From an uncultured Candidatus Saccharibacteria bacterium (GTDB taxonomy: Bacteria; Patescibacteriota; Minisyncoccia; UBA6257; UBA9933), in NCBI GenBank assembly GCA_964367055.1, contig CAYIWD010000001.1, positions 1-52,140 on the forward strand: a stretch of 52,140 nt of DNA, in the 5' to 3' direction. This document shows positions 69 through 51,761 of the stretch, piece by piece (the first letter of the stretch is position 1; every line of letters starts with the position of its first letter). Both the position numbers and the translations under genes were made by a program. The notes beneath the pieces were generated by a model. It worked only from the letters and a program-made list of their open reading frames with translations, ran no database searches and was not told the origin of the DNA.

Positions 69-1589
69 ATGAAGATTCTTTTGGTTAGGCCATATTATTA
101 TATAGATAAAGAGGACTGCCCCTATATTTTTAGGGAGCCATTGGGTTTGGAATATTTGAAAAGTTACGCCGGAGACGAAGCTGATATAGAAATATTTGAT
201 ATGCTGGGAATTTATTGGAATATATATAAAGAAATTGAAGGTAACTCCAATTTAATGAAAATAGGAGGCGATATCAAAGATTTATTTTCTAAAATTGAAC
301 AAGGCAAGCCTGATGTCATAGGTATTACTTCAATGTTTTTAACCGAAAAGGAATTGTTGTTGAATTTAACTAAAGCCATAAAAACTAATTATCCGCAAAT
401 TAAAATAATTGTTGGCGGTCCGCACCCGAGCTGTCTCGGCAAAGAGCTTTTAAATATTAATCCTTATATTGATATTTTGGTTATTGGCGAAGGTGAAGAA
501 ACCCTTAAAGAATTAATTAGGAAAAAATTTGAAAATCTGCCCGGAATTCAGGGAATAATTTTTAAAGACAAGCGTAGCGGCAAAATAATTGAAACCGATG
601 GGAGATGTCCGGTTGATATTAATTCCATTCCTTTTCCGGCCCGGGACGCCGTGCCTTATAAAAATTACAATAAAACTGTTAAGTATTCGGCTTTGCGGAC
701 GAGATTGGGACAAAAAACCGCTTTGTCTTTAATGAATTTGATTTCTAATACTCCAATTGACGATTTAATGGACAAGCTTGTTAATCCCTTAATGAAGAAA
801 TTCGGCCACACTCCAAACAGTTTTCCTTCAGCCGCTATACTTACTAGCCGGAGCTGTCCAAATCGCTGTACTTTTTGCGCCATTCGCAGGGTTTGGAGCG
901 ATATATACAGGATGCGTTCAGCTGAAGATGTAATTAATGAAATAAAACTATTGGTTGAAAAATACCATATCAGGCACTTGGCGATTCAGGATGATAATTT
1001 TACTGTTTCAAAAGACAGGACTATTAAAATTTGTAAAGCCATAATTGAAAGCAAATTTAATATCACTATGGAAGCTTCAAGCGGAATTTATATTCCATCT
1101 CTCGATGAAGAAGTTTTAACCTGGCTTAAAAAAGCGGGTTTGAACTTTATGTATTTAGGAGTTGAATCAGGTAGCCAAAATACTTTGACGAATATCATTA
1201 AAAAAAGATTAGATTTAAAAAAAGTTGATGAAGTAATTGATATCGCGAGGGCAATCGGTATTAAAACCGGCGGATATTTCATTATCGGCTTCCCGGGCGA
1301 GACGCTAAGCGATATGAAAGCAACTATTGATTACGCGTTAAATAGCAAATTGGATATGACGCGGCTGTATCTGCTTCAACCGTTTCCGGGCTCGGAAATG
1401 TATGAAACCTGCGTTAAAAACGGATATTTAACAAGCGATTACGATTACGCCGAAACAAAAATTTTCAAAGAAAAATTTTATATTAAAACTCCTGATTTTA
1501 AGCCGGAGCAAGTTGAGGCATTAGTTCGTGAAGGCAGGCAAGCGCTTTTTAAAGCCGGTAAACTATCCAGCGGATTTTTTAATAAATAA
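69..1589 (+). CDS. Cobalamin-binding (class B) radical SAM enzyme
   Basis: N-terminal B12-domain-like segment (IIVGGPHPS, VIGEGEE) followed by the radical SAM cluster motif SRSCPNRCTFCAI (CxxxCxxC). 506 aa. Confidence 0.85.
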   Translation: MKILLVRPYYYIDKEDCPYIFREPLGLEYLKSYAGDEADIEIFDMLGIYWNIYKEIEGNSNLMKIGGDIKDLFSKIEQGKPDVIGITSMFLTEKELLLNLTKAIKTNYPQIKIIVGGPHPSCLGKELLNINPYIDILVIGEGEETLKELIRKKFENLPGIQGIIFKDKRSGKIIETDGRCPVDINSIPFPARDAVPYKNYNKTVKYSALRTRLGQKTALSLMNLISNTPIDDLMDKLVNPLMKKFGHTPNSFPSAAILTSRSCPNRCTFCAIRRVWSDIYRMRSAEDVINEIKLLVEKYHIRHLAIQDDNFTVSKDRTIKICKAIIESKFNITMEASSGIYIPSLDEEVLTWLKKAGLNFMYLGVESGSQNTLTNIIKKRLDLKKVDEVIDIARAIGIKTGGYFIIGFPGETLSDMKATIDYALNSKLDMTRLYLLQPFPGSEMYETCVKNGYLTSDYDYAETKIFKEKFYIKTPDFKPEQVEALVREGRQALFKAGKLSSGFFNK

Positions 1590-1609
1590 CGACTTGCGAT
1601 GTCGTTATT
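1585..1609. repeat. Hairpin repeat copy 1 (AATAACGAC-ttgcgat-GTCGTTATT), overlaps stop codon of upstream gene
   Basis: 9-bp perfect stem with 7-nt loop, read directly. Same TAACGAC/GTCGTTA core as the copies at 1776 and 2311. Confidence 0.7.
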
Positions 1610-1630
1610 ATTGATTTAGACTGAGATTAT

Positions 1631-2313
1631 ATGGATTTAGTTCATACATTAAGCAGGGGAGTGGATAAGCGAGATATTTTTATTGACGAACAGGATTATT
1701 TTAGGTTTGTGCATGATTTGTTTGAATTTAACGATCAAGAAAGTGCGGATAATATTTTTATTTTTTCCATAAAATTAAATCTAACGACATCGCAAGTCGT
1801 TATATTACGAAAGAGAGGAAGCCGAGAAAGTTTTTGGTTACCATTCATGCGTTTTGTTTGATGAATAATCATTATCATTTATTATTGAGCCCCAGAATCG
1901 ATAATGGTATCACCCAATTTATGAAAAAGATTAATATAGGATATGCAAAATATTTTAACTCGAAATATCAGCGAAAAGGCACTTTATTTGAGGGGCGCTA
2001 TAAATCGGTAATAGTTAAAGATGAGTCCCATTTTATCCACTTGCCTTATTATATTCATTTTAATCCGTTGGATTTTAAATTTTCAGGTTGGCGCAAGCGC
2101 GAATTAAAGAATTATAGGGCGGCGTTAAAATTTTTAGATAATTATCGTTGGTCAAGTCATTTGGATTACCTCGGCAATAATAATTTTCCGTCGGTTACCC
2201 AAAGGAATTTTTTAATGGAATTTTTCGGCGGGCCAAAAGGATATAAAAATTCTATAAAGCAATGGCTTAGAGAAATAGAATTAGAAAATATTCAAGATAT
2301 GAGTTTAGAATAA
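1631..2313 (+). pseudogene. IS200/IS605-type Y1 HUH transposase / RAYT-like gene, split into two frames (1631-1861 and 1834-2313)
   Basis: HUH motif in HAFCLMNNHYHLLL. N-terminal RGVDKRDIF and C-terminal YRWSSHLDY are typical of COG1943-type transposase-like proteins. The frame changes from 2 to 1 around the internal hairpin repeat at 1776-1807. Confidence 0.75.
1776..1807. repeat. Hairpin repeat copy 2 (32 nt, taaatcTAACGACatcgcaaGTCGTTAtatta) inside the transposase-like gene
   Basis: Both flanks and the stem are identical to the copy at 2311-2342. The loop is the exact reverse complement of the copy 1 loop. Length 32 is 2 mod 3. Confidence 0.7.
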
Positions 2314-3485: not shown

Positions 3486-4853
3486 ATGGCTATTTCTCAA
3501 AAATACGAAACAAAATACTCAATTTATAAACTGGAGTTATCCAAGGGTAAGGTTTTTATTACAAGAACCGTTAAAGGCACTGGCGCGGTGAGTAATTTTT
3601 TTTATTACACTTTTATTGATAAAAACGGCAACGCCACAACTAAAAGAATTGATAAAAATATCGGGCAAAAAATAATTAAAACCTGCCTCAAAGACGATAA
3701 TATCAGTTCGGCTTTGATGGTAGTGGAAAAAGGAAAAATCAACAAAGTAAAAAATAAAGCTATAAACTTTGAAGATAAAAGCCAATCAGAATATCTTTTC
3801 ACTTCAACCGGCGACAAATTTGTTTATCATAAAAATTCTCTGGATGCTTTTAGAAATAAGACTGGCAAGACAATTATTTCTACCCACATCAGTCCAGAAG
3901 GAACATGTAATTTAAGATGCCCTTATTGTTCTGTGGCTTATCGTAACAGCTTTGGCAATAGAATTAAATTAAGTGTAATTAAAAAATACGTTAATACTCT
4001 TAAAAAATATGGCCTTAAAGCCGTGATTTTAACCGGCGGCGGCGAACCAACTCTTTATCCTCAAATTAACGAACTAATTGAATTTATTCACGATAAAGCT
4101 GGCTTGGAGTTAGCTTTAATTACTAATGGCACTGCGCTAACGAGAATCGCTCCTAAAAACAGAACCAAATTTAAATGGCTAAGAGTTTCTGTAAACTTAT
4201 TTGACGGCTGGGAGAAAAAAATAAATATTCCCAAGGAATTTATCAATACTAAAACAACCATTGGCTTTAGCCATATTTACACGTTGGAGCATAATTACGG
4301 CGATAAAAAAATTGATTATAAGGAAGTTCTCGCCAAAATTATTAAGCTGATGGATAAATTTAATGCCCAGTATTTGCGTTTGCTTCCGAATTGTCTGATT
4401 AAGGGCGATAAATTCAATTACCAGCATATAGGACTGGATAGACTGATTGCGTCTTTCAAAGACAAAAGAATTTTTCACCAGTTAAAAATTCACCAGACAC
4501 CTGATTTTAAACTCTGTTACCAGTCGTATTTCAGGCCATACCTATCGGAAGAAAAAAATCCTTGGAATAATAAGCCCGGCACGGTTTTCCCCTGCGATTC
4601 CATAGTTTTGAATTCCTCGGTTAAAAAATTTTTGGATAAATACGCGGTCTGTAGCCCGGAAAAAATAGGCGAGTATTTGGACAAAAAAATTAAACAAAGA
4701 TTTAAGCCAGGGATTGATTGCAAGGGGTGTGTTTTTGTCAGAAATAATAAAATAATTGAGCATTTAGTAAATTGCAACACGCAGAAATACGAAAATTATT
4801 TCAAAAATTCTGAAGGTAGAAAAATTAATAATTTGCACAAAAATTTTGTATGA
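3486..4853 (+). CDS. Radical SAM enzyme (no B12 domain) with an N-terminal extension of about 130 aa of unknown function
   Basis: GTCNLRCPYCSV cluster motif followed by ILTGGGEPTLYP. C-terminal Cys residues are present (CDS..., CKGC). Confidence 0.8.
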   Translation: MAISQKYETKYSIYKLELSKGKVFITRTVKGTGAVSNFFYYTFIDKNGNATTKRIDKNIGQKIIKTCLKDDNISSALMVVEKGKINKVKNKAINFEDKSQSEYLFTSTGDKFVYHKNSLDAFRNKTGKTIISTHISPEGTCNLRCPYCSVAYRNSFGNRIKLSVIKKYVNTLKKYGLKAVILTGGGEPTLYPQINELIEFIHDKAGLELALITNGTALTRIAPKNRTKFKWLRVSVNLFDGWEKKINIPKEFINTKTTIGFSHIYTLEHNYGDKKIDYKEVLAKIIKLMDKFNAQYLRLLPNCLIKGDKFNYQHIGLDRLIASFKDKRIFHQLKIHQTPDFKLCYQSYFRPYLSEEKNPWNNKPGTVFPCDSIVLNSSVKKFLDKYAVCSPEKIGEYLDKKIKQRFKPGIDCKGCVFVRNNKIIEHLVNCNTQKYENYFKNSEGRKINNLHKNFV

Positions 4854-6349
4854 AGCCAATCACGACAATTTTAGTAGTAAATAATGAAGAGCATATAGTC
4901 AGAAGATGTTTAGAGAGTATAAAACCTATAAGCTCAGAAATAATTGTGATTCACGACGGAAAATGCGCTGATAAATCATTAAAAATCGCTTCTGAATTTA
5001 CAGAAAAAGTTTTTGAAAGGAAAAAATATTATTGTCCTGAGCCGCACTTAGTTGACGCTCTGTATATGGCGCATCACGATTGGATATTGCGTTTGGATGC
5101 CGACGAATATTTATCGCCAGATTTAATAGAGCATATTTTGCGACTTGATTTAGAAAAAGAACCTTATACTCATTTTAAAGCTAATTGGCGGGAACACATG
5201 GTTGAGCAAGCCAAGCATCCGACAAAAATTCTTTTATTTAACAGAAACCATAGCTTAAGCATCGGCATTCCGCATCGGGCAGTGGAAGTTTCAGGAGAGG
5301 GTCTACTTTTAGACGGCTACTTAGAGCACACGCCTTTACATGCTAATTTTGGTTTTAAAGAAATGCTTCTAAAAAAATTAAAGCCGTTTGCCAAGGTGGA
5401 TGCGGCTTTAAGATATGCCAATCCAGTTAAAATTTATTCATTGAATGGCGAAAATAAATTGCCTAAAAAAATTCTTTTGAGAAATAAGTATCCGCTCATT
5501 ACCGCGCCATTTTTTGCTTTCCGCGTTTATTTTAAAACATTAAAAGAACTAATAAAAAGCCGGAATTGGTTTGCATTTAAAAGAGTCCTTGCGGTGGCGC
5601 ACGCCCATTTAATTGAGCAATTTTTGTTGTCTTATTACATGTATCAAGAAAAGAAAAATTTAAAAAACAAATATTTAATAACCAGCGCTGATAATGATTA
5701 TGATGAAGAATATTATGAAAGAGGACTTTTGAGCGGTAAATCATTATATTCAAATTATCGCTGGATGCCGGAATTAACCATTAGGAGCGCCTATTTTATG
5801 GCCAAAGATTTGCCCATTGAAGAAGGAGCGAAGATTTTAGATTTCGGTTGCGCCAAAGGATATTTTGTCAGAGCTTTGCGTTTCCTAAATTTTGAGGCTT
5901 ATGGAGTTGATATTTCCGATTACGCCATCTCTAAAGCTGAAAAGGATGTGATTAAGCACTGCAAGTTGATTAAACATATTTCAGACCTCAAAAAAATATT
6001 TAATGTCAAATTCGACTGGGTTATTGCCAAAGACGTTTTTGAACACATGCCGGAAAAGCAACTGTCGGAAAACCTAAAAGAGCTCGCGTCAATTACTAAA
6101 AAAATGTTTGTTGTGGTTCCTTTGGGGATTGATGATATTAGCGGCAACTTTGTCGTCCCTGATTATAATAAAGAAATCACTCATGTGACGGCCAGAACGG
6201 ATAAGTGGTGGAAAAGCTTTTTTAAAAAAAATAATTTTTCCGTTGAAAAAGTGAGTTTTAATTTCAGGTTTTGCAAGCACAATTGGACCTCTGTTTGGCC
6301 CAGAGGCAACGGCTTTTATATTCTAAAAAGCAGGCACCCCAAAAAATGA
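4850..6349 (+). CDS. Bifunctional GT2 glycosyltransferase / class I SAM methyltransferase fusion
   Basis: N-terminal half: ILVVNNEEHIVRRCLESI ... DADEY (GT2-like). C-terminal half: ILDFGCAKGYFVRAL ... AYGVDIS (SAM motif I). ATGA overlap with the upstream gene. Confidence 0.75.
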   Translation: MKPITTILVVNNEEHIVRRCLESIKPISSEIIVIHDGKCADKSLKIASEFTEKVFERKKYYCPEPHLVDALYMAHHDWILRLDADEYLSPDLIEHILRLDLEKEPYTHFKANWREHMVEQAKHPTKILLFNRNHSLSIGIPHRAVEVSGEGLLLDGYLEHTPLHANFGFKEMLLKKLKPFAKVDAALRYANPVKIYSLNGENKLPKKILLRNKYPLITAPFFAFRVYFKTLKELIKSRNWFAFKRVLAVAHAHLIEQFLLSYYMYQEKKNLKNKYLITSADNDYDEEYYERGLLSGKSLYSNYRWMPELTIRSAYFMAKDLPIEEGAKILDFGCAKGYFVRALRFLNFEAYGVDISDYAISKAEKDVIKHCKLIKHISDLKKIFNVKFDWVIAKDVFEHMPEKQLSENLKELASITKKMFVVVPLGIDDISGNFVVPDYNKEITHVTARTDKWWKSFFKKNNFSVEKVSFNFRFCKHNWTSVWPRGNGFYILKSRHPKK

Positions 6350-38585: not shown

Positions 38586-39527
38586 ATGAATATTTTAATA
38601 ACTGGATCAGAAGGCTTTATTGGTCGTAATTTGGCGGAGTTATTTTTAAATAAAAAATATTCTGTGTTATTTCCCACAGTAAACGAGTTAGAACTTACTG
38701 ATTCTGGTGCCGTAGAAAAATATTTTAAAAATAATTCAATTGAAACTATTGTGCATTGCGCAACGGTATTAAGAGATGGCACTAACTATCCTGTGGACAC
38801 ATGCGAAAAGAATTTGCGCATGTTCTTCAATCTTCAAAAGTATATGACTCCATCTATGAAAATGATAAATTTAGGCAGTGGTTCCGAGTATGCAAGAGCA
38901 TATTGGCGCAAGAAAATGCCTGAGGAGTATTTTGATGAACATATTCCGGAAGACAGCCATAGTTATGCAAAATACTTGATATCGAAATATATTAAAGAGG
39001 TAAACAATGAGAACCTAATTTGTTTGAGAATATTCGGTATATATGGTAAATATGAAGATTACAGGTATAAATTTATATCTAATGCAATAGTTAAAAATCT
39101 GCTTAATATGCCTATTATTATCAACCAAAATGTTATTTATGATTATATATACATTAATGACTTTTTCAAAATAGTAGAGTATTTTGTTAATAATAAGACA
39201 AAAAACAGGATATTTAATGTTACTCCAACTGGATCAATAGATTTATTGACTATTGCAAACTTGATTAATAAAGTAAGTGAAAGTAAAAGCGAAATACGTG
39301 TATTAAATGAAGGAATTGGAGTTGAATATTCAGGGGACAACAGTAAGCTTATGTCGGAGATGGGGGATTTTCCGTTTATTTCACCAGAGGCGGCAATAGC
39401 AGACCTGTTCAAATATTATAAAAGCATAAAAGACAAATTAGATGTAAGTAATATCAAACAAGATGCATATTTGGAATATGCGAAAAAATTGCATACCAAT
39501 TATTTTAATAAAAAAAATGAGAAATAG
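38586..39527 (+). CDS. NAD(P)-dependent sugar epimerase/reductase (SDR), tandem paralogue
   Basis: MNILITGSEGFIGRNL and YAKYLISK. Collinear with the preceding gene. Confidence 0.7.
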   Translation: MNILITGSEGFIGRNLAELFLNKKYSVLFPTVNELELTDSGAVEKYFKNNSIETIVHCATVLRDGTNYPVDTCEKNLRMFFNLQKYMTPSMKMINLGSGSEYARAYWRKKMPEEYFDEHIPEDSHSYAKYLISKYIKEVNNENLICLRIFGIYGKYEDYRYKFISNAIVKNLLNMPIIINQNVIYDYIYINDFFKIVEYFVNNKTKNRIFNVTPTGSIDLLTIANLINKVSESKSEIRVLNEGIGVEYSGDNSKLMSEMGDFPFISPEAAIADLFKYYKSIKDKLDVSNIKQDAYLEYAKKLHTNYFNKKNEK

Positions 39528-42301: not shown

Positions 42302-42309
42302 TATTACAT

Positions 42310-43230
42310 ATGAAATTACAAGATTTATACAATCACTATTTGTCCGGCAAGCTGGAGAAGCACAAATATATTAATATAATGCATAAAAAGCATCAGATTT
42401 TGTTTGATTATTCTGATTATCTGAAAGAAACCGATGTGAAATCAATAACCATTGGTAATGGTTTTATCTATCTGACGGTTAAGGGCAGTAATATAAAATT
42501 ATTAGTGGACAGATTTGACAGCCGGTTTATCCCAATTGAGATGCTGAATTTCCACTCGATTGACGCGCGGGAAAGAAAACTGCTTTTTAATATAGCTTCT
42601 TTGTGCCGGACAATTTTTGATATTGGGGCAAACATTGGCTGGTATTCGCTAAACTTCAGCCAGCTGCCCAAAGTGGAAAAAATTTATGCGTTTGAACCGA
42701 TTCCTTATACTTACAATTATTTAAAAAAACATCTCCAAATTAATAAGAGTCATCATGTTTCCGCTTTTAATTTTGGCTTTTCTGATGCGGCGGGCGAAAA
42801 AACGTTTTACTGGACAAAAAATGAAACAGGCAGCGCTTCAATGGTCAATATTCAAAAACGTCATAAGATAAATAAAATCAAATGTAAAATTAGCACTATA
42901 GATAAATTTATGAAAAATCGGCGTAAGGCAATTGACTTAATAAAATGCGATGTTGAAGGAGCGGAGTTATTTGTTTTTAGGGGCGCCATTAAAACATTAA
43001 AACGATGTAGGCCAATCATATTTACGGAAATGCTAAGAAAATGGTCTAAAAAGTTCGGTTATCATCCAGATGATATAATTAATTTGCTGTCGGGCTTAGG
43101 TTATCGTTGCTACGGCTACATTAATAATAAAATTAAAAGAATTGATTATGTTTCCCCCGAATTGGAGACTACTAATTTTTTCTTTTTTCATGAAGCAAAA
43201 CATAAAAAAATAATTAAAAGCTTAAAATAA
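42310..43230 (+). CDS. FkbM-family methyltransferase
   Basis: IFDIGANIGWYSL ... YAFEPIPYTY ... IDLIKCDVEGAE is typical of FkbM-domain methyltransferases. Confidence 0.75.
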   Translation: MKLQDLYNHYLSGKLEKHKYINIMHKKHQILFDYSDYLKETDVKSITIGNGFIYLTVKGSNIKLLVDRFDSRFIPIEMLNFHSIDARERKLLFNIASLCRTIFDIGANIGWYSLNFSQLPKVEKIYAFEPIPYTYNYLKKHLQINKSHHVSAFNFGFSDAAGEKTFYWTKNETGSASMVNIQKRHKINKIKCKISTIDKFMKNRRKAIDLIKCDVEGAELFVFRGAIKTLKRCRPIIFTEMLRKWSKKFGYHPDDIINLLSGLGYRCYGYINNKIKRIDYVSPELETTNFFFFHEAKHKKIIKSLK

Positions 43231-43420: not shown

Positions 43421-44731
43421 ATGTCTATGAATGATGATTTAAAAAATAACCTGATTCAGGAATTTAAAAACAGATTTCCGTCAAAAAAATTTGTTCCTGG
43501 CGAATCTCCAATACCGGTTTCCGGTAAAGTTTTTAACGAAAAAGAAATATTAAAAATGACAGAGGCAGTTTTAGATGGTCATTGGACTGACGGCAAATAT
43601 GCCAAGGAATTTGAAGAAAAATTAGCTGAATTTTTTGGCTTAAAATTTTGTTCGCTTGTTAATTCCGGCTCTTCTGCTAATTTATTGGCTTTAACTGTCC
43701 TAACTTCTTTTAGAATTCCCGAAGAAAAACGGCTTAAAAAAGGCGACGAGGTGATAACCACAGCTGCTAGTTTTCCTACTACTATAAATCCGATTATTCA
43801 AAATGGTTTAGTACCTGTGTTTGTTAATGTTGAATTGGGGAGCTACAATGCGACACTGGAAAATGTCAAAAACGCCGTTTCAGACAAAACAAAAGCCGTT
43901 TTTATGGCTCACACTTTAGGTAATCCTTATGAGGTTGAAGAACTTAAAGAATTTTGCGAGCAAAATAATCTTTGGCTGATTGAAGATAACTCTGATAGCT
44001 TAGGTTCAAAATATAACGGAAAATTCACCGGCACCTTTGGGCATTTATCAACTTTGAGTTTTTATCCGGCGCATCATATTACAACGGGAGAAGGCGGCGC
44101 GATTTTAACGGATGATCCCTCGCTTAATAAAATTGTCCGTTCTTTGCGCGATTGGGGCCGGGACTGCTGGTGTCCGACTGGTCAAGATAATACTTGTAAA
44201 AAGAGATTTGATTGGCAATTGGGTGATTTGCCGCACGGCTATGACCACAAATATATTTACAGCGAAATCGGCTATAATTTGAAAATTACGGATATTCAAG
44301 CTGCTCTTGGCTCAGCTCAATTTGATAAATTAGCCGGATTTATTCAGAAACGGAAAGAAAATTTTAATTATTTATATACAGCATTTAAAGAATTTGAGGA
44401 TGATTTTATTTTGCCTGTTTGGGACAAAAAAGCAGACCCGAGCTGGTTTGGTTTTCTGTTAACCATTAAAAATACCGCTAAATTTAAAAGAAATGATTTA
44501 TTGAAGTTTTTAAATAACAGAAAAATCGGCACTAGATTACTTTTCGCCGGAAATATCACTCGTCAGCCATATTTTAAAAATTATAAGATAGATTATCGTA
44601 TTTCTGGAGAACTTAAAAATACAGATGAAATTATGAATAATTGTTTTTGGATTGGCGTTTACCCGGGTTTAAACAAAGAAATGCTGGATTATATAATTAA
44701 ATCTTTCAAAGAATTTTTCCCCCACTCTTAA
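43421..44731 (+). CDS. rfbH: CDP-6-deoxy-D-xylo-4-hexulose 3-dehydrase (E1, RfbH/DdhC)
   Basis: NSGSSANLLA. SFYPAHHITTGEGG, with His replacing the PLP Lys. RDWGRDCWCPTGQDNTCKKRF is the Cys-rich Fe-S segment characteristic of RfbH. Confidence 0.85.
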   Translation: MSMNDDLKNNLIQEFKNRFPSKKFVPGESPIPVSGKVFNEKEILKMTEAVLDGHWTDGKYAKEFEEKLAEFFGLKFCSLVNSGSSANLLALTVLTSFRIPEEKRLKKGDEVITTAASFPTTINPIIQNGLVPVFVNVELGSYNATLENVKNAVSDKTKAVFMAHTLGNPYEVEELKEFCEQNNLWLIEDNSDSLGSKYNGKFTGTFGHLSTLSFYPAHHITTGEGGAILTDDPSLNKIVRSLRDWGRDCWCPTGQDNTCKKRFDWQLGDLPHGYDHKYIYSEIGYNLKITDIQAALGSAQFDKLAGFIQKRKENFNYLYTAFKEFEDDFILPVWDKKADPSWFGFLLTIKNTAKFKRNDLLKFLNNRKIGTRLLFAGNITRQPYFKNYKIDYRISGELKNTDEIMNNCFWIGVYPGLNKEMLDYIIKSFKEFFPHS

Positions 44732-45011: not shown

Positions 45012-45959
45012 ATGAATAATAAAATTATATTATCTATTGGTGTTATTACTTATAATCAGCCCAAAGAATTAAGGCGGCTTATGCTAAGCGTTTTGCCGCA
45101 AATAGAGCCCGGAGTAGAAATTGTGATCAACGATAATAGTGATAACTTGGAAAGTGAATCAATAATTAGGAATGAATTTAATAGTCCTTATGTGCGTTAT
45201 TTTAAGAACAAAATTAATGTTGGGTCTGAAGGGAATATTCTTTTAGCAACCGAGCGATCATTGGGAAAATACGTTTGGTGGCTCGGTGATGATGAACTAA
45301 AGCCGGGCGCGATAGCTCATGTTCTATCTATTATAAAAAATAACCCTGAAATATCGCTGATTTGGATAAATTTTGAAGTTAATGGCTTATTAGCTCGGCC
45401 CTTAATTCAAGATAAATTTTTTAAAGATAGAAATCAGGTGGTTGAAGAAATTTCAAACGAGTTGGGATTTGTTTCTTCCATTATTTTTAAAAAAGAAAAG
45501 ATTATTAACATCAGTAAAGAAGACAAAGATCAATTTATCGGTTCTGATTTCATAAATCTTTATTTGGTAATGCATATTCTTAGCCAGGATGGAAAATTTT
45601 ATTATGTTGGGCATCCTTATGTTATTTGCTATCCGAGACCGGCTGAAAAGCATCCTTATGGCGGATTTGAAGTTTTCGGAATCAATTTTTATCGGATAGT
45701 TAAAAATTTTGAAGCTAAATTTGACAAAAAATCCATAAAAAAAATGCTAGCGAAGAATTTCGGTTATGTTTGGCGGGGAATTTTAGTCTGTTGGTTAAAG
45801 GGTTACGACACGCCAAAAGGCAAGTTCAAAACAATGTTTAGACTTTATTGGAATTTTCCGGAATTTTGGATAGCTGGGCCGCTTTTTTTAATGCCTAAAT
45901 TTATAACCAAATTTATTTATTTTATCTACAAAAAAGTGTTAAAACGTAAATATACATGA
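45012..45959 (+). CDS. GT2 glycosyltransferase
   Basis: LSIGVITYNQPKELRRLMLSV ... VINDNSDN ... GDDE. Confidence 0.7.
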   Translation: MNNKIILSIGVITYNQPKELRRLMLSVLPQIEPGVEIVINDNSDNLESESIIRNEFNSPYVRYFKNKINVGSEGNILLATERSLGKYVWWLGDDELKPGAIAHVLSIIKNNPEISLIWINFEVNGLLARPLIQDKFFKDRNQVVEEISNELGFVSSIIFKKEKIINISKEDKDQFIGSDFINLYLVMHILSQDGKFYYVGHPYVICYPRPAEKHPYGGFEVFGINFYRIVKNFEAKFDKKSIKKMLAKNFGYVWRGILVCWLKGYDTPKGKFKTMFRLYWNFPEFWIAGPLFLMPKFITKFIYFIYKKVLKRKYT

Positions 45960-46717
45960 CTAATGTTTTGGTAAAATTAATCGGTTATCCGGCGACGATT
46001 TTACACGGCGATGCGGCTGTTTTTGACAGATATAAATGGCTTAAAAAACATCTTAAATCTGGCCCACTGCGTACTCTTGACGCTGGCTGCGGCTCTGGCG
46101 CTTTTACGATGTATGCGGCAAAAATCGGAAATGAAGCAATAGGAATTTCTTTTGATAAGGGAAATAATGAAAAGGCGGTTAAAAGAGCAAGAATTTTAAA
46201 TATTTCCAATGTCAGTTTTATTGACGGAGATTTAAGAAAATTAGATGAAATATCCGAATCCTTGGGAAAATTTGACCAGATTATTTGTTTTGAAACAATT
46301 GAACATATTTTAGACGACAAAAAATTGATAAAAGATTTTTTTAGTTTGCTAAATCCGAGAGGAAAGCTACTTTTAACGACTCCCTATAAATTTTATAAGT
46401 CCCTTTACGGCGATGATAAAGATAAAATATCAACTTTTGAGGACGGCGGCCATGTCAGATATGGATACACGCATAAGGAAATGTCTGATTCATTGGAAAA
46501 ATCAGGTTTTGAAATTGAAGCAAAAGAATATATCACCGGCTTTTTGTCTCAGCAGCTTATTAATTTGCAAAGAATTCTCGCTGAAATAAATTCAAAACTA
46601 GCTTGGATTATTGTTTTTCCCCTAAGGATATTTCAATTTTTTGACCCGTTGATTAGCAAAATTATTAATTACCCGTATCTTTCAATTGGGGTGGTCGCGG
46701 TAAAAAAAATAGCTTAA
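45956..46717 (+). CDS. Class I SAM-dependent methyltransferase
   Basis: TLDAGCGSGAFTMYAA motif I and ICFETIEHI. No DNA-methyltransferase DPPY or PC motifs seen. Confidence 0.75.
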   Translation: MTNVLVKLIGYPATILHGDAAVFDRYKWLKKHLKSGPLRTLDAGCGSGAFTMYAAKIGNEAIGISFDKGNNEKAVKRARILNISNVSFIDGDLRKLDEISESLGKFDQIICFETIEHILDDKKLIKDFFSLLNPRGKLLLTTPYKFYKSLYGDDKDKISTFEDGGHVRYGYTHKEMSDSLEKSGFEIEAKEYITGFLSQQLINLQRILAEINSKLAWIIVFPLRIFQFFDPLISKIINYPYLSIGVVAVKKIA

Positions 46718-46727
46718 TTAAAATTAT

Positions 46728-47046
46728 TATGCCCAGTATGAGAATTTCAAAATGGCATTATGTTTATGTATTATTAAGTCAGAAGGATGATGAATTTTAT
46801 ATTGGCTATACCCAAAATCTAAGAAAAAGAATCGATGAACATAATGCCCCAAAAAATTTTTCAACTAAATCAAGAATTCCCCTGACTTTGATTTATACTG
46901 ATGCATGTCTAAATAAAGAAGATGCTCAAAGAAGAGAAAGATATCTTAAAACTACGCAAGGTCGAAGATTTCTTAAATTAAGATTGAGGAAGTTTCTACA
47001 AAATGGTAATTGAAAAATTTAATTTGAAATTCCTCTACTGGGTATG
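46728..47046. mobile_element. Family-1 start-codon insertion C carrying a GIY-YIG ORF (311 bp between TATG copies)
   Basis: TATG|CCCAGTA ... TACTGGG|TATG. Arms ATGCCCAGTAtGAG-AATTTCAAA vs the reverse complement of the right end, ATaCCCAGTA-GAGgAATTTCAAA. The left ATG is the start of the GIY-YIG ORF and the right ATG is the start of the GT4 gene. Confidence 0.6.
46729..47013 (+). CDS. Small GIY-YIG (URI-domain) nuclease family protein
   Basis: 94 aa. HYVYVLLSQKDDEFYIGYTQNLRKRIDEHN ... RRERYLK. Confidence 0.8.
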   Translation: MPSMRISKWHYVYVLLSQKDDEFYIGYTQNLRKRIDEHNAPKNFSTKSRIPLTLIYTDACLNKEDAQRRERYLKTTQGRRFLKLRLRKFLQNGN

Positions 47047-48183
47047 GATATTATTATTTCTGTTGGCGCAAAATTTCACGCTTTTAATCTGGCTCAACAA
47101 CTTTTAAAGAGAGGATATTTAAAGCGTTTAATTACTTCTTATCCCAAATTTGAGACGGCTAAATACGGCATACCCAAAAGTAAGGTGCGGTCTATAATTA
47201 TTAAAGAAATTTTATTCAGGGGATGGAATAAACTGCCGGGATTTTTAAAAAGAATTTTTGATTTGCAGTTTTTTATTTTTGAATTATTTGATAAATTGGC
47301 TTCTCGAAAAATCTTGAAATCGGATATTTTTGTCGGCTGGTCCTGTTTTTCACTTCGCTCCTTAAGAAAAGCCCAAAAAATGGGTGCGATAACCATTATT
47401 GAAAGGGGCAGTTCGCACATTGTTTATCAAGATGAAATTTTAAGAGAAGAATACGGCCGGTTTGGCGCTAAAATTGCGCCGACGCCAAAAAAAATAATTG
47501 CCAAAGAATTAAAAGAATATGCCGAAGCTGATTACATTTCCATTCCTTCTTCTTTTGTTAAAAGAAGTTTTTTAGAGTATGGCGTAGATGAAAAAAAACT
47601 TATTCAAGTTCCTTACGGAGTGGACTTATCTAATTTTCGACAGATTCCCAAAACTGATAATGTTTTTCGCGTAATTTTTGCAGGCGGGATGAGCTTGAGA
47701 AAGGGGGTTCATTATTTGCTTCAAGCGTTTTCAGAATTAAAATTGCCGAATTCAGAATTGATGCTTATTGGCGGTATGAATGATGAGATTATGCCATTTT
47801 TTAAAAAATACGAAGGCAGTTATAAATATGTCGGGCACGTTGACCAAAAAGAATTATACAAATATTATTCTCAAGGGTCGGTTTTTGCGATAATGTCTAT
47901 TGAAGAGGGATTGGCCTTGGTTCAACCCCAGGCAATGGCTTGCGGTTTGCCTATTATCTGTACGACTAATACCGGCGGAGAAGATATAGTCAGAAATAAT
48001 ATTGATGGTTTTGTTATTCCTATTAGAGACATTGAAGCGCTAAAAGAAAAATTAATTTATCTTTACAAAAATCCGGAAATTCTTAAAACTATGAGTCAAT
48101 CTGCCAAAGAGCGCGTAAAAAATGATTTTACTTGGGATAAATATGGAGAAAAAATTATTGAAGCGTATAAACGATTATTATGA
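47044..48183 (+). CDS. GT4-family (GT-B) glycosyltransferase
   Basis: C-terminal EEGLALVQPQAMACGLPIICTTNTGGEDIV is the E-x7-E type GT4 signature region. Confidence 0.8.
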   Translation: MDIIISVGAKFHAFNLAQQLLKRGYLKRLITSYPKFETAKYGIPKSKVRSIIIKEILFRGWNKLPGFLKRIFDLQFFIFELFDKLASRKILKSDIFVGWSCFSLRSLRKAQKMGAITIIERGSSHIVYQDEILREEYGRFGAKIAPTPKKIIAKELKEYAEADYISIPSSFVKRSFLEYGVDEKKLIQVPYGVDLSNFRQIPKTDNVFRVIFAGGMSLRKGVHYLLQAFSELKLPNSELMLIGGMNDEIMPFFKKYEGSYKYVGHVDQKELYKYYSQGSVFAIMSIEEGLALVQPQAMACGLPIICTTNTGGEDIVRNNIDGFVIPIRDIEALKEKLIYLYKNPEILKTMSQSAKERVKNDFTWDKYGEKIIEAYKRLL

Positions 48184-49640
48184 TACAACGTTTAAAAGAA
48201 CTTATATTCAAAAATAAAACGTCCCGTCAAACAATGGCGAAAAACGTCTTTTGGCTGGCTATCGGACAATTTGGGAGCAGGTTAATTAGGTCGGCGATTA
48301 CTATTTATTCGGCGAGGCTTCTTGGCGCTTCTGAATACGGCATATTTTCTTACGCTTTGGGCATCGCGTCATTTTTTACGATTTTTTCTGATATCGGCAC
48401 AAGCGTTATCTTAACAAGAGAAGTCGCTAAAGAGCCGGAAAAAGAAAAAAATTATTTCGCGACTATTTTTGCGATTAGAACATTTTTGCTTATTTTTACG
48501 GCCGTGCTGCTAATCGCGGTTGCTCCGAGATTTATTAAAATTGAAAAAGCAGCGTACCTTATGCCGTTTGTTGCTTTGTTTACCATATTAGAGGGCTTTC
48601 GCGACGTTGCTTACGCCTTTTTTAAGGGCAAGGAGAAAATGGAACTTGAGGCAATTGTCACCTCCGCGGTTAATTTTGCGGTAACTGTTTTTGGATTTAT
48701 CGCGCTATCTATATCGCCAATGTCAGCGACTCTGCTTAAAGTTTATATCGCTGGGTCTCTTATTGGATTTTTTATGACCGTTTATCTTTTACGCGAGGAA
48801 TACCGCGGCATAATAAAATATTTTTCAAAAAAGTTAATTGGTCCAATAACCAAGGCTGCTTGGCCGATGGCGGCTGGCGGTCTTGTCGGCGCTTTTATGT
48901 CTAATGTAGACATATTAATGCTGGGTTGGTGGCGCACTGCGTCAGAAATCGGATTTTATTCTGTTGGGCAAAAAATTGTCGGTATGCTCTATATTATTGG
49001 CGGGTTAATGCCGACGGCGATATATCCCGCTGTTTCCCGTATTATTCATGAAAACGACAAAGAAAGAATAAGCAGCATTCTGTCAAAAACAATGATTATT
49101 GTTTTAATGGCGGCAGTGCCATTTTCAATTGGCGGCATTATTTTAGGAGACCAAATTATTAGATTGGTATTCGGCATTAATTATATAAATGCAGTGCCTG
49201 TGTTTAGGATTATGATTTTGTCGCTAATGGCAATATACCCCTTTTCCGTTCTTAATATCGCGATTCTTGGTTTTAATAAACAATCAAAATTATTTTGGTA
49301 TTCAATCATCGCTACCATAACGAATATAGTTTTAAACGCAGTTTTAATTCCTCCTTACGGAATAGAAGGCGCGGCGGCGGCGACGTTATTCGCTAATTCC
49401 CTGAATGTGTTTTTCCTTTGGCGCTCGGTAAAGAAACTAAATAATTTTATAATTTTGCCGGACCTGAAAAAGATATTTATTGGCGTGATTGGAATGGCGG
49501 TTATGGCGATATTTCTTAAGTACCTCGGAGTAATGCTTGTAGTAAACATTGTTATTTCCGGCGCTTTTTACTTCTTTATGTTATACGCGCTTAAAGAGAG
49601 AAATTTTAAAGAGTTATTGTCCTTGCTTCATATTTCATAA
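48180..49640 (+). CDS. Wzx-like oligosaccharide flippase (MOP superfamily polysaccharide biosynthesis protein)
   Basis: 486 aa with about 12-14 hydrophobic helices. N-terminal KNVFWLAIGQFGSRLIRSAITIYSARLLGASEYGIFSYAL is typical of the family. Confidence 0.75.
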   Translation: MIQRLKELIFKNKTSRQTMAKNVFWLAIGQFGSRLIRSAITIYSARLLGASEYGIFSYALGIASFFTIFSDIGTSVILTREVAKEPEKEKNYFATIFAIRTFLLIFTAVLLIAVAPRFIKIEKAAYLMPFVALFTILEGFRDVAYAFFKGKEKMELEAIVTSAVNFAVTVFGFIALSISPMSATLLKVYIAGSLIGFFMTVYLLREEYRGIIKYFSKKLIGPITKAAWPMAAGGLVGAFMSNVDILMLGWWRTASEIGFYSVGQKIVGMLYIIGGLMPTAIYPAVSRIIHENDKERISSILSKTMIIVLMAAVPFSIGGIILGDQIIRLVFGINYINAVPVFRIMILSLMAIYPFSVLNIAILGFNKQSKLFWYSIIATITNIVLNAVLIPPYGIEGAAAATLFANSLNVFFLWRSVKKLNNFIILPDLKKIFIGVIGMAVMAIFLKYLGVMLVVNIVISGAFYFFMLYALKERNFKELLSLLHIS

Positions 49641-49782: not shown

Positions 49783-49799
49783 AGAAAATATAAATAAAT

Positions 49800-50711
49800 A
49801 TGAAAATTTTACTTACTGGCGGCGCGGGCTTTATCGGGAGTCATGTTGTTGATGCCTATATTAAAGCTGGCCACAAAGTTGTCGTTATAGACAATCTGGC
49901 AAGCGGTTTTAAGAAAAATTTAAACCCTAAGGCGAAATTTTATAAAATTGACATCAGAAATTACAAGGCCTTGGAAAAAATCATAAAAAAAGAAAAACCT
50001 CAAATTATCAGCCACCACGCCGCTGTTTCTGAAGTCGTAAAATCCATAAAAGACCCGAATTTAACCTATCAAGTAAACATCTTAGGGACAATAAATATTT
50101 TATTAGTCGGCGCGAGCGTTGGCGTTAAAAAAATAATTTTCGCTTCAAGCGCCGGAACAATTTATGGAAACGCCAAAAAATTGCCGGCTAAAGAAGATTC
50201 GCCTCTAAGTCCTTTGTCGCCCTATGCTATTTCCAAAATTGTCGGAGAAGAATTTGTTGAATTTTACGCCAAAATTTATAGTTTTGATTATTTAATACTG
50301 CGATACGCTAATGTTTACGGGCCCAGGCAAAACCCAAGAGGGGAAGCAGGGGTTATCGCTATTTTTACCGATTTAATGAAAAGAAATATGAGGCCGAAGA
50401 TTTTTGGCAATGGGAATAAAACGCGCGATTATATCTACATTGATGATATTACGGGAGCAAATACTTTTGGATTAAAAAGAGGTAAAAACGAAATTTTGAA
50501 TATTGGCAGCGGAAAAGAAATTTCTGACCGAAAAGTTTTTAATACCTTAGCTCAAGCAATTAATTTTAAAAGGCCGCCAATTTATGCGCCGTTTCGAAAA
50601 GGCGAAGTTTATCGGATTTATTCCGACTGCTCCCGCGCCAGAAAAATTCTTGGCTGGCAAACGAAAATAAATTTTGAACAAGGAATCAAAAAATATCTCA
50701 ATAATCTGTAA
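49800..50711 (+). CDS. NAD-dependent epimerase (UDP-glucose 4-epimerase/GalE-like SDR)
   Basis: MKILLTGGAGFIGSHVVD, ASSAGTIYG, PYAISKIVGE (YxxxK). The N-terminal 50 aa are closely parallel to the gene at 29085. Confidence 0.7.
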   Translation: MKILLTGGAGFIGSHVVDAYIKAGHKVVVIDNLASGFKKNLNPKAKFYKIDIRNYKALEKIIKKEKPQIISHHAAVSEVVKSIKDPNLTYQVNILGTINILLVGASVGVKKIIFASSAGTIYGNAKKLPAKEDSPLSPLSPYAISKIVGEEFVEFYAKIYSFDYLILRYANVYGPRQNPRGEAGVIAIFTDLMKRNMRPKIFGNGNKTRDYIYIDDITGANTFGLKRGKNEILNIGSGKEISDRKVFNTLAQAINFKRPPIYAPFRKGEVYRIYSDCSRARKILGWQTKINFEQGIKKYLNNL

Positions 50712-50729
50712 TAAAATCTGTAATAATAT

Positions 50730-51761
50730 TTAAAACCAATTACTTTCATGAAAACAAGCGCCGCAAACAGGGTGAAGATGGCGTTTATTTTCCAGATGTA
50801 ATTTTCGAAGATTTTCTAATGGCTTCCCATTGAATATCTCAAGTAAATTCTGAGAATTTACATCTCCTACAATTAATTTTCTTTTATCGCCGTCATCGCA
50901 GCAAGGTGCCACTCGGCCATCATAATAAATATAAACGTTTCCCCAGAGTTGCTTGCACGGCGAACACCAGATATTCTTTTTATGGATTTTTCCCAAAACA
51001 CCTATATTTTCAACAGATTGAGTGCCAACCCTATCCCACAAGTCGGCAGTTATAATCGCGTCTACCCCTTTCTGTTTTTGCCAAAATTTTACAAAATCAT
51101 TCATATCTTTTTTATTCAAGTGTAATTTTACAGTAGAAATCGAAACATATAAATCATGCTGGTGAAAGATTTCTTTTAAAGATAGAAAATCGATTATATT
51201 CTTATATGCGACATCTCTTTTTAGCCCAACCATTACAGCCTCATATGTCTCGGGTTTGTATCCGCAAACAGAAAAGTTTATGCTTTTTAATCCTCCCAAT
51301 TTAAACAAAATCTTTGCCTTTGATTTATCAAGCAAAGAACCATTAGTAAAAAATCCATAATTCATATTATATTTTCTTAAAAAACGTATCCTTTCAAATA
51401 TAAACGGATCCATAAACGGTTCGCCATATACGTTTAACCCCACATCTTTTATGCCAAGCGAATGGCACTCTTTGATTATTTTCTTAAACAAATCCATCTT
51501 CATTATCCCTGTTAATTGCTTGTAGGCATGGGCACACATAACGCATTTGGAATTGCAATTCAAACTCGTTTCTATAGAAACGCCATAATTACTGCGTGAA
51601 TATTTCAAGACATAATTTTGCGCCGCTTTTAACGTGTAAGATTTATAAAATCTATTTTTCCGTAAAACTGAAAGAGTGGTTTTAAACGCATCCATCAGTC
51701 GCGGCCTTCGTAAGGCGAATTTTACTAATTGATTTCTGATTTGCATTTTTTGTTTTATCAA
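50730..51761 (-). CDS. Radical SAM enzyme with SPASM domain
   Basis: ETSLNCNSKCVMCAH and YGEPFMDP. C-terminal CSPCKQLW...DGRVAPCCDD...HPVCGACFH. Confidence 0.8.
   Translation of the reverse strand: MIKQKMQIRNQLVKFALRRPRLMDAFKTTLSVLRKNRFYKSYTLKAAQNYVLKYSRSNYGVSIETSLNCNSKCVMCAHAYKQLTGIMKMDLFKKIIKECHSLGIKDVGLNVYGEPFMDPFIFERIRFLRKYNMNYGFFTNGSLLDKSKAKILFKLGGLKSINFSVCGYKPETYEAVMVGLKRDVAYKNIIDFLSLKEIFHQHDLYVSISTVKLHLNKKDMNDFVKFWQKQKGVDAIITADLWDRVGTQSVENIGVLGKIHKKNIWCSPCKQLWGNVYIYYDGRVAPCCDDGDKRKLIVGDVNSQNLLEIFNGKPLENLRKLHLENKRHLHPVCGACFHESNWF

Follow-up and report, generated by a model that had tools for sequence, protein, structure and literature searches.

We analysed a 52,140-nt stretch of metagenomic DNA (contig CAYIWD010000001.1, positions 1 to 52,140), referred to below as the window, which carries a series of genes for radical S-adenosylmethionine (SAM) enzymes (rSAMs) among genes for sugar enzymes. 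Pfam scanning of its 43 open reading frames (ORFs) identified seven rSAMs with a B12-type domain (B12-rSAMs 1 to 7), three of the SPASM/twitch type and one plain rSAM (Table 1). Of about 43 genes, 11 encode rSAMs, and these genes cover 31% of the DNA; against an assumed background of 2% rSAM genes, the binomial probability is 6.5e-10. They are surrounded by nucleotide-sugar enzymes, glycosyltransferases (GTs), methyltransferases (MTs) and a Wzx flippase, and start/stop overlaps of 4-8 nt tie seven of the 11 directly to an adjacent GT, MT, short-chain dehydrogenase/reductase (SDR) or DegT gene. An eighth, B12-rSAM 1, is coupled in the same way, its start overlapping by 4 nt the stop of a GT4 gene located just upstream of the window (6480-7592 and 7589-9109 on flank contig L003).

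Three replicate assemblies (Hain_H43_01um) and one Logan assembly yielded this sequence independently. Two flank contigs share 10,170 and 7,753 nt with the window ends (the latter being L007, downstream), with one mismatch each. The glycan-gene island spans about 62 kb and the window is most of it. The upstream flank carries a Wzy_C protein (L003:3-1352, 79.6 bits), a GMD-like double SDR, an MT, an aminotransferase and a GT4. The downstream flank continues with a GT4, a cytidylyltransferase-like gene and a GT2, then small ORFs, an eighth B12-rSAM, a SPASM rSAM and an integrase. In the window and both flanks, an Rfam scan at the gathering threshold gave no match, hence no cobalamin riboswitch, and a tRNA scan found none.

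The radical SAM enzymes

A first-pass annotation, made from the sequence alone, had described these 11 enzymes as interleaved, often through overlapping stop and start codons, with eight GTs, five SAM MTs and the flippase. Domain searches agree with most of this inventory. The seven B12-rSAMs score above the gathering cut-offs of both PF02310 (43-74 bits; cut-off 32.1 bits) and PF04055 (62-99 bits; cut-off 29.5 bits), and each of the 11 rSAMs contains a single CX3CX2C motif. The ORF at 3486 matches PF04055 only. Among the three SPASM-like enzymes, those at 36710 and 50730 exceed the 21.5-bit cut-off of PF13186 while the one at 10341 falls just below. Five SAM MT domains and the flippase were found, and six GTs are clear; the other two are a membrane protein that is GT-C-like by topology and a partial GT4 at the 3' end. 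The motifs by which the B12 domains had been recognized were recovered in part, xGGxH[PA][TS] in five of the seven proteins and GEGE in four, and are missing from the rest. The strong divergence noted between the paralogues was also observed (23-31% pairwise identity). A motif search found DxHxxG in none of the seven B12 domains, an absence that would be expected for base-off/His-off binding, although no sequence signature is decisive for the use of cobalamin.

We compared ten of the rSAMs (the GT2 fusion described below apart) with curated NCBIfam families. The characterised B12-rSAM families were BchE, HpnJ, HpnR, PhpK, the Sden_1168 P-methylase, ApyD, the MCR glutamine methylase, the ladderane lipid rSAM, BzaD, AprD4, KedN5 and TsrM. 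None of the ten enzymes reached any family cut-off, including those of the lipid and tetrapyrrole families that the first-pass annotation had named as a way to disprove a glycan role, and those of families acting on ribosomally synthesized and post-translationally modified peptides (RiPPs); the rSAM half of the fusion lies equally far below. The best case is B12-rSAM 6 with the Sden_1168 P-methylase (209.9 bits against a cut-off of 575), all others being further below, such as B12-rSAM 3 with its top match PhpK (141 bits against 600).

B12-rSAM 4 has more than 1400 homologues, with 55-71% identity in Omnitrophota, Planctomycetota, Elusimicrobia, KSB1 and Methanoperedens. Its AF2/AlphaFold model (predicted local distance difference test score, pLDDT, 87.8) aligns over the full length with every solved B12-domain rSAM, namely TsrM, AprD4, MgmA, CysS, OxsB and TokK. 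The highest TM-scores were obtained with AprD4 (0.74/0.77), which is also the best PDB sequence match (E = 2.3e-22).

The ORFs at 10341 and 11394, listed together in the first-pass annotation, are a single fusion gene encoding a GT2, an rSAM and a SPASM-like domain. This architecture was confirmed by full-length orthologues (51-64% identity); the fusion is rare, and its named orthologues are Wolfebacteria or Patescibacteria. SPASM a overlaps each of its neighbours by 4 nt. Its family counts 585 cluster representatives at E <= 1e-30, and the family profile matches BtrN with E = 1.3e-19, C-terminal domain included, aligning with the single-cluster twitch domain of this enzyme. BtrN is also the sole PDB match of SPASM b (E = 2e-8). 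The full 7-Cys SPASM motif was found in none of the three SPASM-type rSAMs, which have 5-6 C-terminal Cys each. The plain rSAM gave only weak PDB matches (GDGT-MAS, viperin, MoaA), and its stop overlaps by 4 nt the start of the GT2/MT gene. Since the closest matches are AprD4, a diol dehydratase, for the B12-rSAM 4 model and BtrN, a dehydrogenase, for the SPASM-type enzymes, deoxygenation or oxidation is as plausible a chemistry as methylation.

Two sugar cassettes and a backbone

Cassette 1 (15964-27105) is composed, in order, of a thiamine pyrophosphate (TPP) enzyme (TPP a), GT2 b, MT a, B12-rSAM 4, a DegT aminotransferase, SDR b, B12-rSAM 5, a GHMP kinase and a HAD/nucleotidyltransferase. 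It is syntenic, with 40-73% identity per gene, in loci of Omnitrophota (L091), Sedimentisphaerales (L092), Methanoperedens (L093), an archaeon (L012) and Planctomycetaceae (L011). The B12-rSAM 4 orthologues in these loci are 51-71% identical and have beside them orthologues of MT a in L092 (72%) and L011 (40%). In each of the two archaeal loci, L012 and L093, B12-rSAM 5 has an orthologue of 53% identity; the one of L093 sits between SDR b and the GHMP kinase, as in the window, and the one of L012 adjoins the B12-rSAM 4 orthologue. GT2 b, with orthologues of about 50% in L011, L091 and L092, has no transmembrane helices and matches DPMS (E = 1.5e-11), ArnC (3.4e-7) and GtrB-type enzymes (2e-5) in the PDB.

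The TPP enzyme of cassette 1 resembles acetolactate synthase (ALS) and YerE in the window and in L012 (43% orthologue), and is of the pyruvate-dehydrogenase E1 alpha/beta type or transketolase-like in L091-L093. Because it is replaced by a non-orthologous TPP enzyme across loci, a TPP-dependent two-carbon step seems to be conserved. The Methanoperedens version adds SIS, HAD, NTP-transferase, transaldolase, transketolase, formyltransferase and Wzm/Wzt-like ABC genes, a set that, by analogy, recalls heptose or octose activation routes. In the window, the HddA, GmhB and HddC models all match under their cut-offs (102.6 bits against 300 for HddC); judged from these similarities, a heptose-type activation module with a similar pathway logic appears recognizable. 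In a locus from a relative within the candidate phyla radiation (CPR), orthologues of the DegT gene (80%) and SDR b are fused (L094 19402-21639, 745 aa); transketolase-like genes are adjacent, and a B12-rSAM is neither inserted nor found alongside.

Cassette 2 (28333-44731) runs from a cytidylyltransferase through a 4,6-dehydratase, a NUDIX hydrolase, TPP b, a HAD phosphatase, an HpcH-like gene, B12-rSAM 6, a TylC3-type C-methyltransferase, SPASM a, three SDRs, B12-rSAM 7 and FkbM to RfbH. The latter, intact across the junction of two replicate contigs, exceeds its family cut-off (674 against 423 bits) and points to a CDP-3,6-dideoxyhexose route. With this route and the heptose-type module at hand, the earlier statement that no substrate could be assigned from sequence was too cautious. 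The cytidylyltransferase-like gene has 42-50% orthologues in L012, L098, L100, L102 and L129. The 4,6-dehydratase scores 186.6 bits with the CDP-type model (cut-off 278.45) and slightly more with the dTDP-type model, also under cut-off. The HpcH-like family profile matches HpcH/HpaI aldolases of the PDB with E = 3e-4. A phosphonate route, in which the HpcH-like gene would encode a phosphoenolpyruvate (PEP) mutase and B12-rSAM 6 a P-methylase, was considered and rejected: there is no PEP_mutase match, the HpcH/HpaI likeness is distant, and the Sden_1168 score is far under cut-off.

Conservation of cassette 2 was examined in 19 metagenome loci of at least 12 kb with a SPASM a orthologue (locus GC content 0.25-0.55). 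SDR c accompanies it in 19/19 loci, the C-methyltransferase in 18/19, TPP b in 17/19 and the HpcH-like gene in 15/19. B12-rSAM 6 has 70-75% orthologues in L100, L101, L102 and L142, beside the same C-methyltransferase or SDR genes. In L101, SDR e directly abuts FkbM, with no B12-rSAM 7, and SDR c is separated from SDR d by a different B12-rSAM; in L129, the enzyme in the slot of B12-rSAM 7 is likewise a different B12-rSAM. Because differing B12-rSAMs are found at differing positions of the cassette, they behave as variable accessory genes of a conserved core pathway. Thus, two cassettes with four rSAMs are syntenic across phyla and domains, and a further rSAM is fused to a GT2. The glycan context proposed in the first-pass annotation is borne out, and the survey of relatives that it had suggested revealed a conserved rather than a random neighbourhood.

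Some additional features of the cassettes were recorded. Cassette 2 also has marine and freshwater versions (L104, L105, L113, L119, L124, L129 and L146), with a SPASM a of about 50-55% identity and a GC content down to 0.25, and these carry, right after SDR c, a second, longer SPASM-type rSAM (about 425 aa) that the window lacks. The AspAT-like aminotransferase between the two cassettes is unusual in a glycan island beside DegT-type enzymes and has weak homologues in Bathyarchaeota B12-rSAM arrays (L043, L067). GC content climbs to 0.44-0.51 at 32600-34200, over the HAD-IIA and HpcH-like genes (0.47-0.51 around the former), the island mean being about 0.35. A recent import of this stretch from any retrieved locus was rejected, the best DNA matches elsewhere being 67-68% identical. 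Overall, nucleotide identity to any retrieved locus was at most 77%, which gives no sign of recent transfer.

A backbone is shared with CPR relatives. In the CPR glycan islands L094 and L095, orthologues of 42-80% identity were found for the GT1-like gene, the fusion, the membrane protein with its polytopic layout, GT4, MT b and the DegT gene. In both, the GT1-like orthologue (55-57%) is directly upstream of the fusion gene, and a third CPR locus (L176) also has the fusion with its GT1-like neighbour. Only 1-3 rSAMs are present within ±10 kb of the fusion gene in these relatives' islands. The membrane protein (42-47% orthologues in L094 and L095) has at least 9 hydrophobic segments followed by a soluble C-terminus of about 190 aa, and a TDD motif after the first transmembrane segment. 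A GT-C link through a PMT_2-like protein of the Omnitrophota locus was discarded, this protein having no similarity to that of the window. The Wzx flippase (PF01943, 113 bits) and, in the upstream flank, Wzy_C are both present.

Other elements were noted along the island. The double SDR of the upstream flank (L003 2767-5007, 746 aa) has two domains of the GDP-mannose-4,6-dehydratase/epimerase type. Considered alongside the GDP-fucose-synthase-like SDR (15012-15926), this protein suggests that a GDP-6-deoxyhexose route may be the third of the island. Between B12-rSAM 1 and the plain rSAM, the island is broken by an IS200-like Y1 transposase fragment (150 aa; profile positions 49-119 only) preceded by a 76-aa ORF without family match (1631-2313 for both), and by a 271-aa ORF on the minus strand, also without family match (2434-3249). 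A small GIY-YIG nuclease ORF (46738-47013, 59.7 bits) lies within the island and a similar one among the GT genes of L094 (7398-7700), which suggests a recurrent selfish element of CPR glycan islands. The downstream pair formed by a B12-domain rSAM (482 aa) and a SPASM rSAM (322 aa) is located about 5 kb past the 3' end of the window (L007 13269-15743), separated from the glycan genes by small membrane ORFs and followed by an rve integrase fragment; it brings the local rSAM total to 13.

Table 1. Genes of the window with their domain and profile evidence (scores in bits)
Feature	Position	Strand	Evidence
B12-rSAM 1, 506 aa	69..1589	+	PF02310 64.6, PF04055 94.2; CPNRCTFC at residue 263
Plain rSAM, 455 aa	3486..4853	+	PF04055 56.7; CNLRCPYC at residue 141
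GT2 fused to SAM MT	4850..6349	+	PF00535, PF13489; 4-nt overlap with both rSAM neighbours
B12-rSAM 2, 489 aa	6346..7815	+	PF02310 51.5, PF04055 62.4; CPFSCAYC at residue 207
B12-rSAM 3, 494 aa	7825..9309	+	PF02310 43, PF04055 86.2
GT1-like GT, CPR backbone	9317..10348	+	PF13524 111
GT2-rSAM-SPASM-like fusion, 726 aa	10341..12521	+	PF00535 108.7, PF04055 74.5, SPASM 19.8 (cut-off 21.5)
DedA/VTT membrane protein	12514..13230	+	PF09335 89.8
Polytopic membrane protein, GT-C-like by topology only	13209..14957	-	No Pfam or NCBIfam match
SDR, GDP-L-fucose-synthase-like	15012..15926	+	NF047922 424.7 (cut-off 500); 52% orthologue in L091
TPP enzyme a, ALS/YerE-like	15964..17763	+	Three TPP domains; all ALS models under cut-off
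Small GT2 b, polyprenyl-phosphate GT-like	17760..18470	+	PF00535
SAM MT a	18467..19363	+	PF13489 86
B12-rSAM 4, 478 aa, cassette 1	19387..20823	+	PF02310 66, PF04055 99
DegT-type sugar aminotransferase a	20820..21986	+	PF01041 224.9
SDR b, most conserved cassette-1 partner	22123..23070	+	PF01370; 66-73% orthologues in L091-L093
B12-rSAM 5, 495 aa, cassette 1	23076..24563	+	PF02310 55.7, PF04055 75.4
GHMP sugar kinase, HddA-like	24824..25822	+	GHMP N and C domains; HddA 148.8 (cut-off 600); 57-67% orthologues in L091-L093
GmhB-like HAD phosphatase fused to sugar-1-P nucleotidyltransferase	25828..27105	+	GmhB 158.7 (cut-off 178); PF00483 131
Class I/II (AspAT-like) aminotransferase, between cassettes 1 and 2	27056..28267	+	PF00155 230.6; all NCBIfam models under cut-off
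Glucose-1-phosphate cytidylyltransferase-like	28333..29097	+	TIGR02623 285.6 (cut-off 300.25)
NDP-hexose 4,6-dehydratase	29085..30026	+	PF16363 211
NUDIX hydrolase	30023..30517	+	PF00293; 41-70% orthologues in cassette-2 loci
TPP enzyme b, ALS/YerE-like, cassette 2 core	30523..32313	+	Three TPP domains
HAD-IIA phosphatase	32371..33159	+	TIGR01460 120 (above cut-off 100)
Distant HpcH/HpaI-aldolase-like protein, cassette 2 core	33156..33950	+	PF03328 21.8 (under cut-off 25)
B12-rSAM 6, 501 aa, cassette 2 accessory	34062..35567	+	PF02310 74, PF04055 67.9
TylC3-type NDP-sugar C-methyltransferase, cassette 2 core	35577..36713	+	PF08421, PF13489, PF08484
SPASM a, BtrN-like rSAM with SPASM/twitch domain, 331 aa, cassette 2 core	36710..37705	+	PF04055 67, PF13186 42
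SDR c, RmlD-like, cassette 2 core	37702..38553	+	PF01370, PF04321
SDR d	38586..39527	+	PF01370; 53-68% orthologues
SDR e, true start probably after 39463	39463..40605	+	PF01370 from residue 46; 48-78% orthologues
B12-rSAM 7, 556 aa, between SDR e and FkbM	40631..42301	+	PF02310 54.2, PF04055 84.7
FkbM-family MT	42298..43230	+	PF05050 84.4
RfbH/E1, CDP-6-deoxy-4-hexulose 3-dehydrase	43421..44731	+	NF011936 673.6 (above cut-off 423)
GT2 c	45012..45959	+	PF00535
SAM MT b, CPR backbone	45956..46717	+	PF13489; 67% orthologue in L095
GT4, CPR backbone	47044..48183	+	PF00534 95.6; 64% orthologue in L095
Wzx-type flippase	48180..49640	+	PF01943 113
SDR f, GalE-like epimerase	49800..50711	+	PF01370 203; GalE model 196 (cut-off 262)
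SPASM b, rSAM with SPASM/twitch domain, 338 aa	50730..51746	-	PF13186 49.7, PF04055 43.4
GT4, 5' part, runs off the window	51838..52140	+	Full gene L007 7451-8617, GT4 Pfam families

Proposed pathway and alternatives

In our judgement, the window is probably most of a surface-glycan island whose rSAMs tailor nucleotide-activated or polyprenyl-linked sugars; a glycan-tailoring role of these enzymes is well supported. The island is a mosaic of cassettes 1 and 2 and a CPR backbone made of the GT1-like enzyme, the GT2-rSAM fusion, DedA, the GT-C-like protein, GT2, GT4, an MT and Wzx, with Wzy_C just upstream. In cassette 1, the GHMP kinase and the GmhB-like phosphatase/nucleotidyltransferase would activate a heptose-like sugar, and SDR b, DegT, the TPP enzyme (by two-carbon addition), the MT and B12-rSAMs 4 and 5 would rework it into an aminosugar. 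The DPMS/ArnC-like GT2 b would probably move this sugar to polyprenyl phosphate, and the GT-C-like protein then to an acceptor. In cassette 2, CDP-glucose would be converted by the 4,6-dehydratase and RfbH/E1 to a 4-keto-3,6-dideoxyhexose, which the YerE-like TPP enzyme, the HpcH-like aldolase, the C-methyltransferase, three SDRs and FkbM could branch and decorate into a C-branched, C-methylated sugar. Here, the BtrN-like SPASM a would probably carry out a radical oxidation of a sugar hydroxyl, with B12-rSAMs 6 and 7 as variable insertions adding variable modifications. The B12-rSAMs might perform C-methylation, as do GenK and GenD1, or radical deoxygenation together with an SDR partner, as do AprD4 and AprD3. 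The backbone would assemble the glycan and export it via Wzx and Wzy.

Several observations weigh against this scheme. Both textbook sugar routes are incomplete in the window, since no E3 reductase (AscD/RfbI; ferredoxin-reductase type) was found among its ORFs for the dideoxyhexose, and no SIS-domain isomerase gene (GmhA) for GDP-D-glycero-alpha-D-manno-heptose. No initiating phosphoglycosyltransferase (WbaP/WecA type; Bac_transf or MraY-like) was detected in the 43 window ORFs or the flanks examined. The GT-C label of the membrane protein comes from topology alone. No syntenic orthologues were recovered for B12-rSAMs 1, 2 and 3, the plain rSAM and SPASM b, whose support is their position in the island, and the loci examined contained no orthologue of B12-rSAM 7. 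The top NCBIfam matches are to RiPP, hopanoid, bacteriochlorophyll and P-methylase families, all far under cut-off. Finally, some arrays of multiple B12-rSAMs elsewhere, such as that of Bathyarchaeota L054, showed little recognizable glycan context in BLAST comparison.

AprD4 lacks cobalamin though it shares the fold of the B12-domain enzymes. The glycan context could be right while some or all of the B12-domain enzymes are cobalamin-free non-methylases, that is AprD4-like dehydratases acting with an SDR reductase, or catalysts of other radical rearrangements. AprD4 is the best match of B12-rSAM 4 by both TM-score and PDB sequence. In apramycin biosynthesis, it dehydrates the diol of paromamine and, with the reductase AprD3, achieves C3' deoxygenation (PMC5461906); B12-rSAMs 4 and 5 regularly adjoin the conserved SDR b, which parallels this dehydratase-reductase pair. 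In addition, the island already has five conventional MT domains, including a sugar C-methyltransferase. Nevertheless, B12-rSAM 4 is not a member of the AprD4 family (107 bits against a cut-off of 500; 42-107 bits for the window enzymes), and its context is an NDP-heptose-like pathway, not paromamine. PF02310 is above threshold in 7/7 proteins, and the cobalamin-bound TsrM, OxsB, TokK and CysS match the B12-rSAM 4 model nearly as well as AprD4 does. We consider this explanation rather unlikely.

That the island would serve to produce a secreted, glycosylated natural product of the aminoglycoside kind, instead of a cell-surface glycan, is improbable. The nearest characterised relatives of its rSAMs (AprD4 and BtrN, and by architecture GenK/GenD1) do all come from aminoglycoside pathways, and DegT, SDR and NDP-sugar genes are typical of such clusters too. 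The locus, however, encodes six to eight GTs, Wzx, Wzy_C, a GT-C-like protein and a DPMS/ArnC-like GT2. Scanning of the window ORFs revealed neither a 2-deoxy-scyllo-inosose synthase nor another cyclitol enzyme, and the backbone lies in ordinary glycan islands of CPR relatives.

The affiliation of its genes identifies the host as a Parcubacteria-type CPR bacterium of anoxic Hainich groundwater, in line with the CPR-type host guessed in the first-pass annotation. Named homologues of the DUF5671 protein encoded in the downstream flank are all Patescibacteria, and the same holds for the fusion (51-88% identity for the two proteins). In well H43 of the Hainich transect, dissolved oxygen is 0 mg/L, and Paceibacteria, whose mean genome is about 689 kb, dominate the 0.1 um fractions (PMC8672522). 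For a reduced CPR-type host, the first-pass annotation had suggested a dependence on scavenged cobalamin. According to the same study of the Hainich transect, cobalamin is among the vitamin pathways not missing in most Patescibacteria metagenome-assembled genomes (PMC8672522). Were the contig from a non-CPR cell, for example an ultra-small Omnitrophota, conclusions on a minimal CPR genome would be void. Among named homologues, those closest to B12-rSAM 4 come from Omnitrophota (71%), a 0.1 um filter fraction is not exclusively CPR, and a scan of a genome collection did not recover the host genome among the matches listed (53% identity at best), but the DUF5671 and fusion relatives, the 42-80% identity of the backbone genes to CPR loci and the 7,753-nt overlap of flank and window with a single mismatch make such an origin very doubtful.

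That the rSAMs would mature a RiPP or modify lipids, the glycan genes being merely adjacent, is hardly credible: SPASM enzymes are often peptide maturases, top NCBIfam matches include ApyD (RiPP), HpnJ/HpnR (hopanoid) and the ladderane-lipid rSAM, and a 76-aa ORF lies beside B12-rSAM 1, but these matches are far under cut-off (210 against 575 bits at best), rSAM genes overlap sugar-enzyme genes in an arrangement kept across phyla, one rSAM is fused to a GT2, and the small ORF abuts the IS200 fragment.

Known systems and biological meaning

The surface-glycan pathway proposed here combines elements of several known systems. GenK and GenD1 are cobalamin-dependent class B rSAM C-methyltransferases of gentamicin biosynthesis (PMC5461906). 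Like the B12-rSAMs of the window, to which they were likened by architecture, they have an N-terminal B12-type domain, a CX3CX2C core, and DegT-type aminotransferases and dehydrogenases nearby. They act on unactivated sugar carbons, as the window enzymes may by analogy. GenK and GenD1 modify pseudo-oligosaccharide antibiotics in actinomycetes, whereas the window enzymes lie in nucleotide-sugar/surface-glycan cassettes of uncultured bacteria and archaea. BtrN, the butirosin rSAM dehydrogenase with a twitch domain, is matched by the SPASM a profile including the auxiliary-cluster domain. Its chains are of 269-270 aa compared to about 330 aa here, and SPASM a, from a large uncharacterised family, is flanked by C-methyltransferase and SDR genes within a CDP-sugar cassette.

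Cassette 2 shares cytidylyltransferase-like, 4,6-dehydratase, RfbH/E1, ALS-like TPP and SDR genes with the yersiniose/CDP-3,6-dideoxyhexose pathway (DdhA-C/RfbF-H, YerE, YerF), the YerE likeness of its TPP enzyme being a family-level similarity only. It differs from this pathway by the E3 reductase missing from the window and by the addition of HpcH-like, HAD, NUDIX, C-methyltransferase, FkbM, BtrN-like rSAM and B12-rSAM genes. With the Arn system (ArnB/ArnC/ArnT) and GtrB/DPMS, the window shares a DegT enzyme, an SDR, a DPMS/ArnC-like GT2 and a polytopic membrane protein, to which the Methanoperedens version adds a formyltransferase. In contrast to the Arn system, GT2 b is devoid of transmembrane helices and the membrane protein has no detectable ArnT/PMT similarity. 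Wzx/Wzy O-antigen and capsule loci have in common with the island Wzx, Wzy_C (in the flank), many GT2 and GT4 enzymes and nucleotide-sugar genes. Unlike these loci, the island showed no chain-length regulator or initiating phosphoglycosyltransferase in the window and examined flanks, and a quarter of the window genes encode rSAMs.

To our knowledge, such a density of rSAMs has not been reported for characterised O-antigen or capsule loci, and we know of sugar-directed class B and twitch-type rSAMs only from a few antibiotic pathways. Full-text literature searching retrieved no description of rSAM-rich glycan islands or of cassettes 1 or 2. Both the enzyme superfamilies and this kind of locus were known before; it is the stacking of conserved sugar cassettes with B12-domain and BtrN-like rSAMs in one CPR island that appears undescribed. 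The density by itself had been overstated in the first-pass annotation, other uncultured lineages having equal or denser arrays. B12-rSAM arrays beside small GT2, GT4, Wzx, DegT or SDR genes were found in an unclassified bacterium (nine in 21 kb), Woesearchaeota, Gottesmanbacteria, Saccharibacteria, Bathyarchaeota, Methanosarcinales and Pacearchaeota, a theme that is widespread in uncultured lineages yet seemingly undescribed.

For enzymology, the cassettes, which are found again in several phyla and in bacteria as well as archaea, provide defined targets in a syntenic setting, whose substrates can be predicted (CDP-4-keto-3,6-dideoxyhexose and an NDP-heptose-like sugar). For evolution, the insertion of different B12-rSAMs at different points of one cassette suggests a route to new glycan structures. 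For CPR biology, an island of about 62 kb, compared to an average genome of about 0.7 Mb in relatives (PMC8672522), is a very large investment in surface-glycan diversity, relevant to host attachment, phage evasion and the reliance on shared cofactors.

We tentatively propose a broader reading, in which the two cassettes encode a radical sugar chemistry not known so far. The B12-rSAMs would be interchangeable plug-ins that methylate, extend or deoxygenate unactivated carbons of CDP- or GDP-sugars, and the large BtrN-like family would provide NAD-independent sugar oxidation. With both, many uncultured bacteria and archaea (among them CPR, DPANN, Omnitrophota, Bathyarchaeia and marine plankton) would make branched, higher-carbon sugars for their surfaces. 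If so, a CPR cell of about 0.7 Mb would devote about a tenth of its genome to this pathway, and the surface identity of this cell would depend on community-supplied cobalamin and on anoxia.

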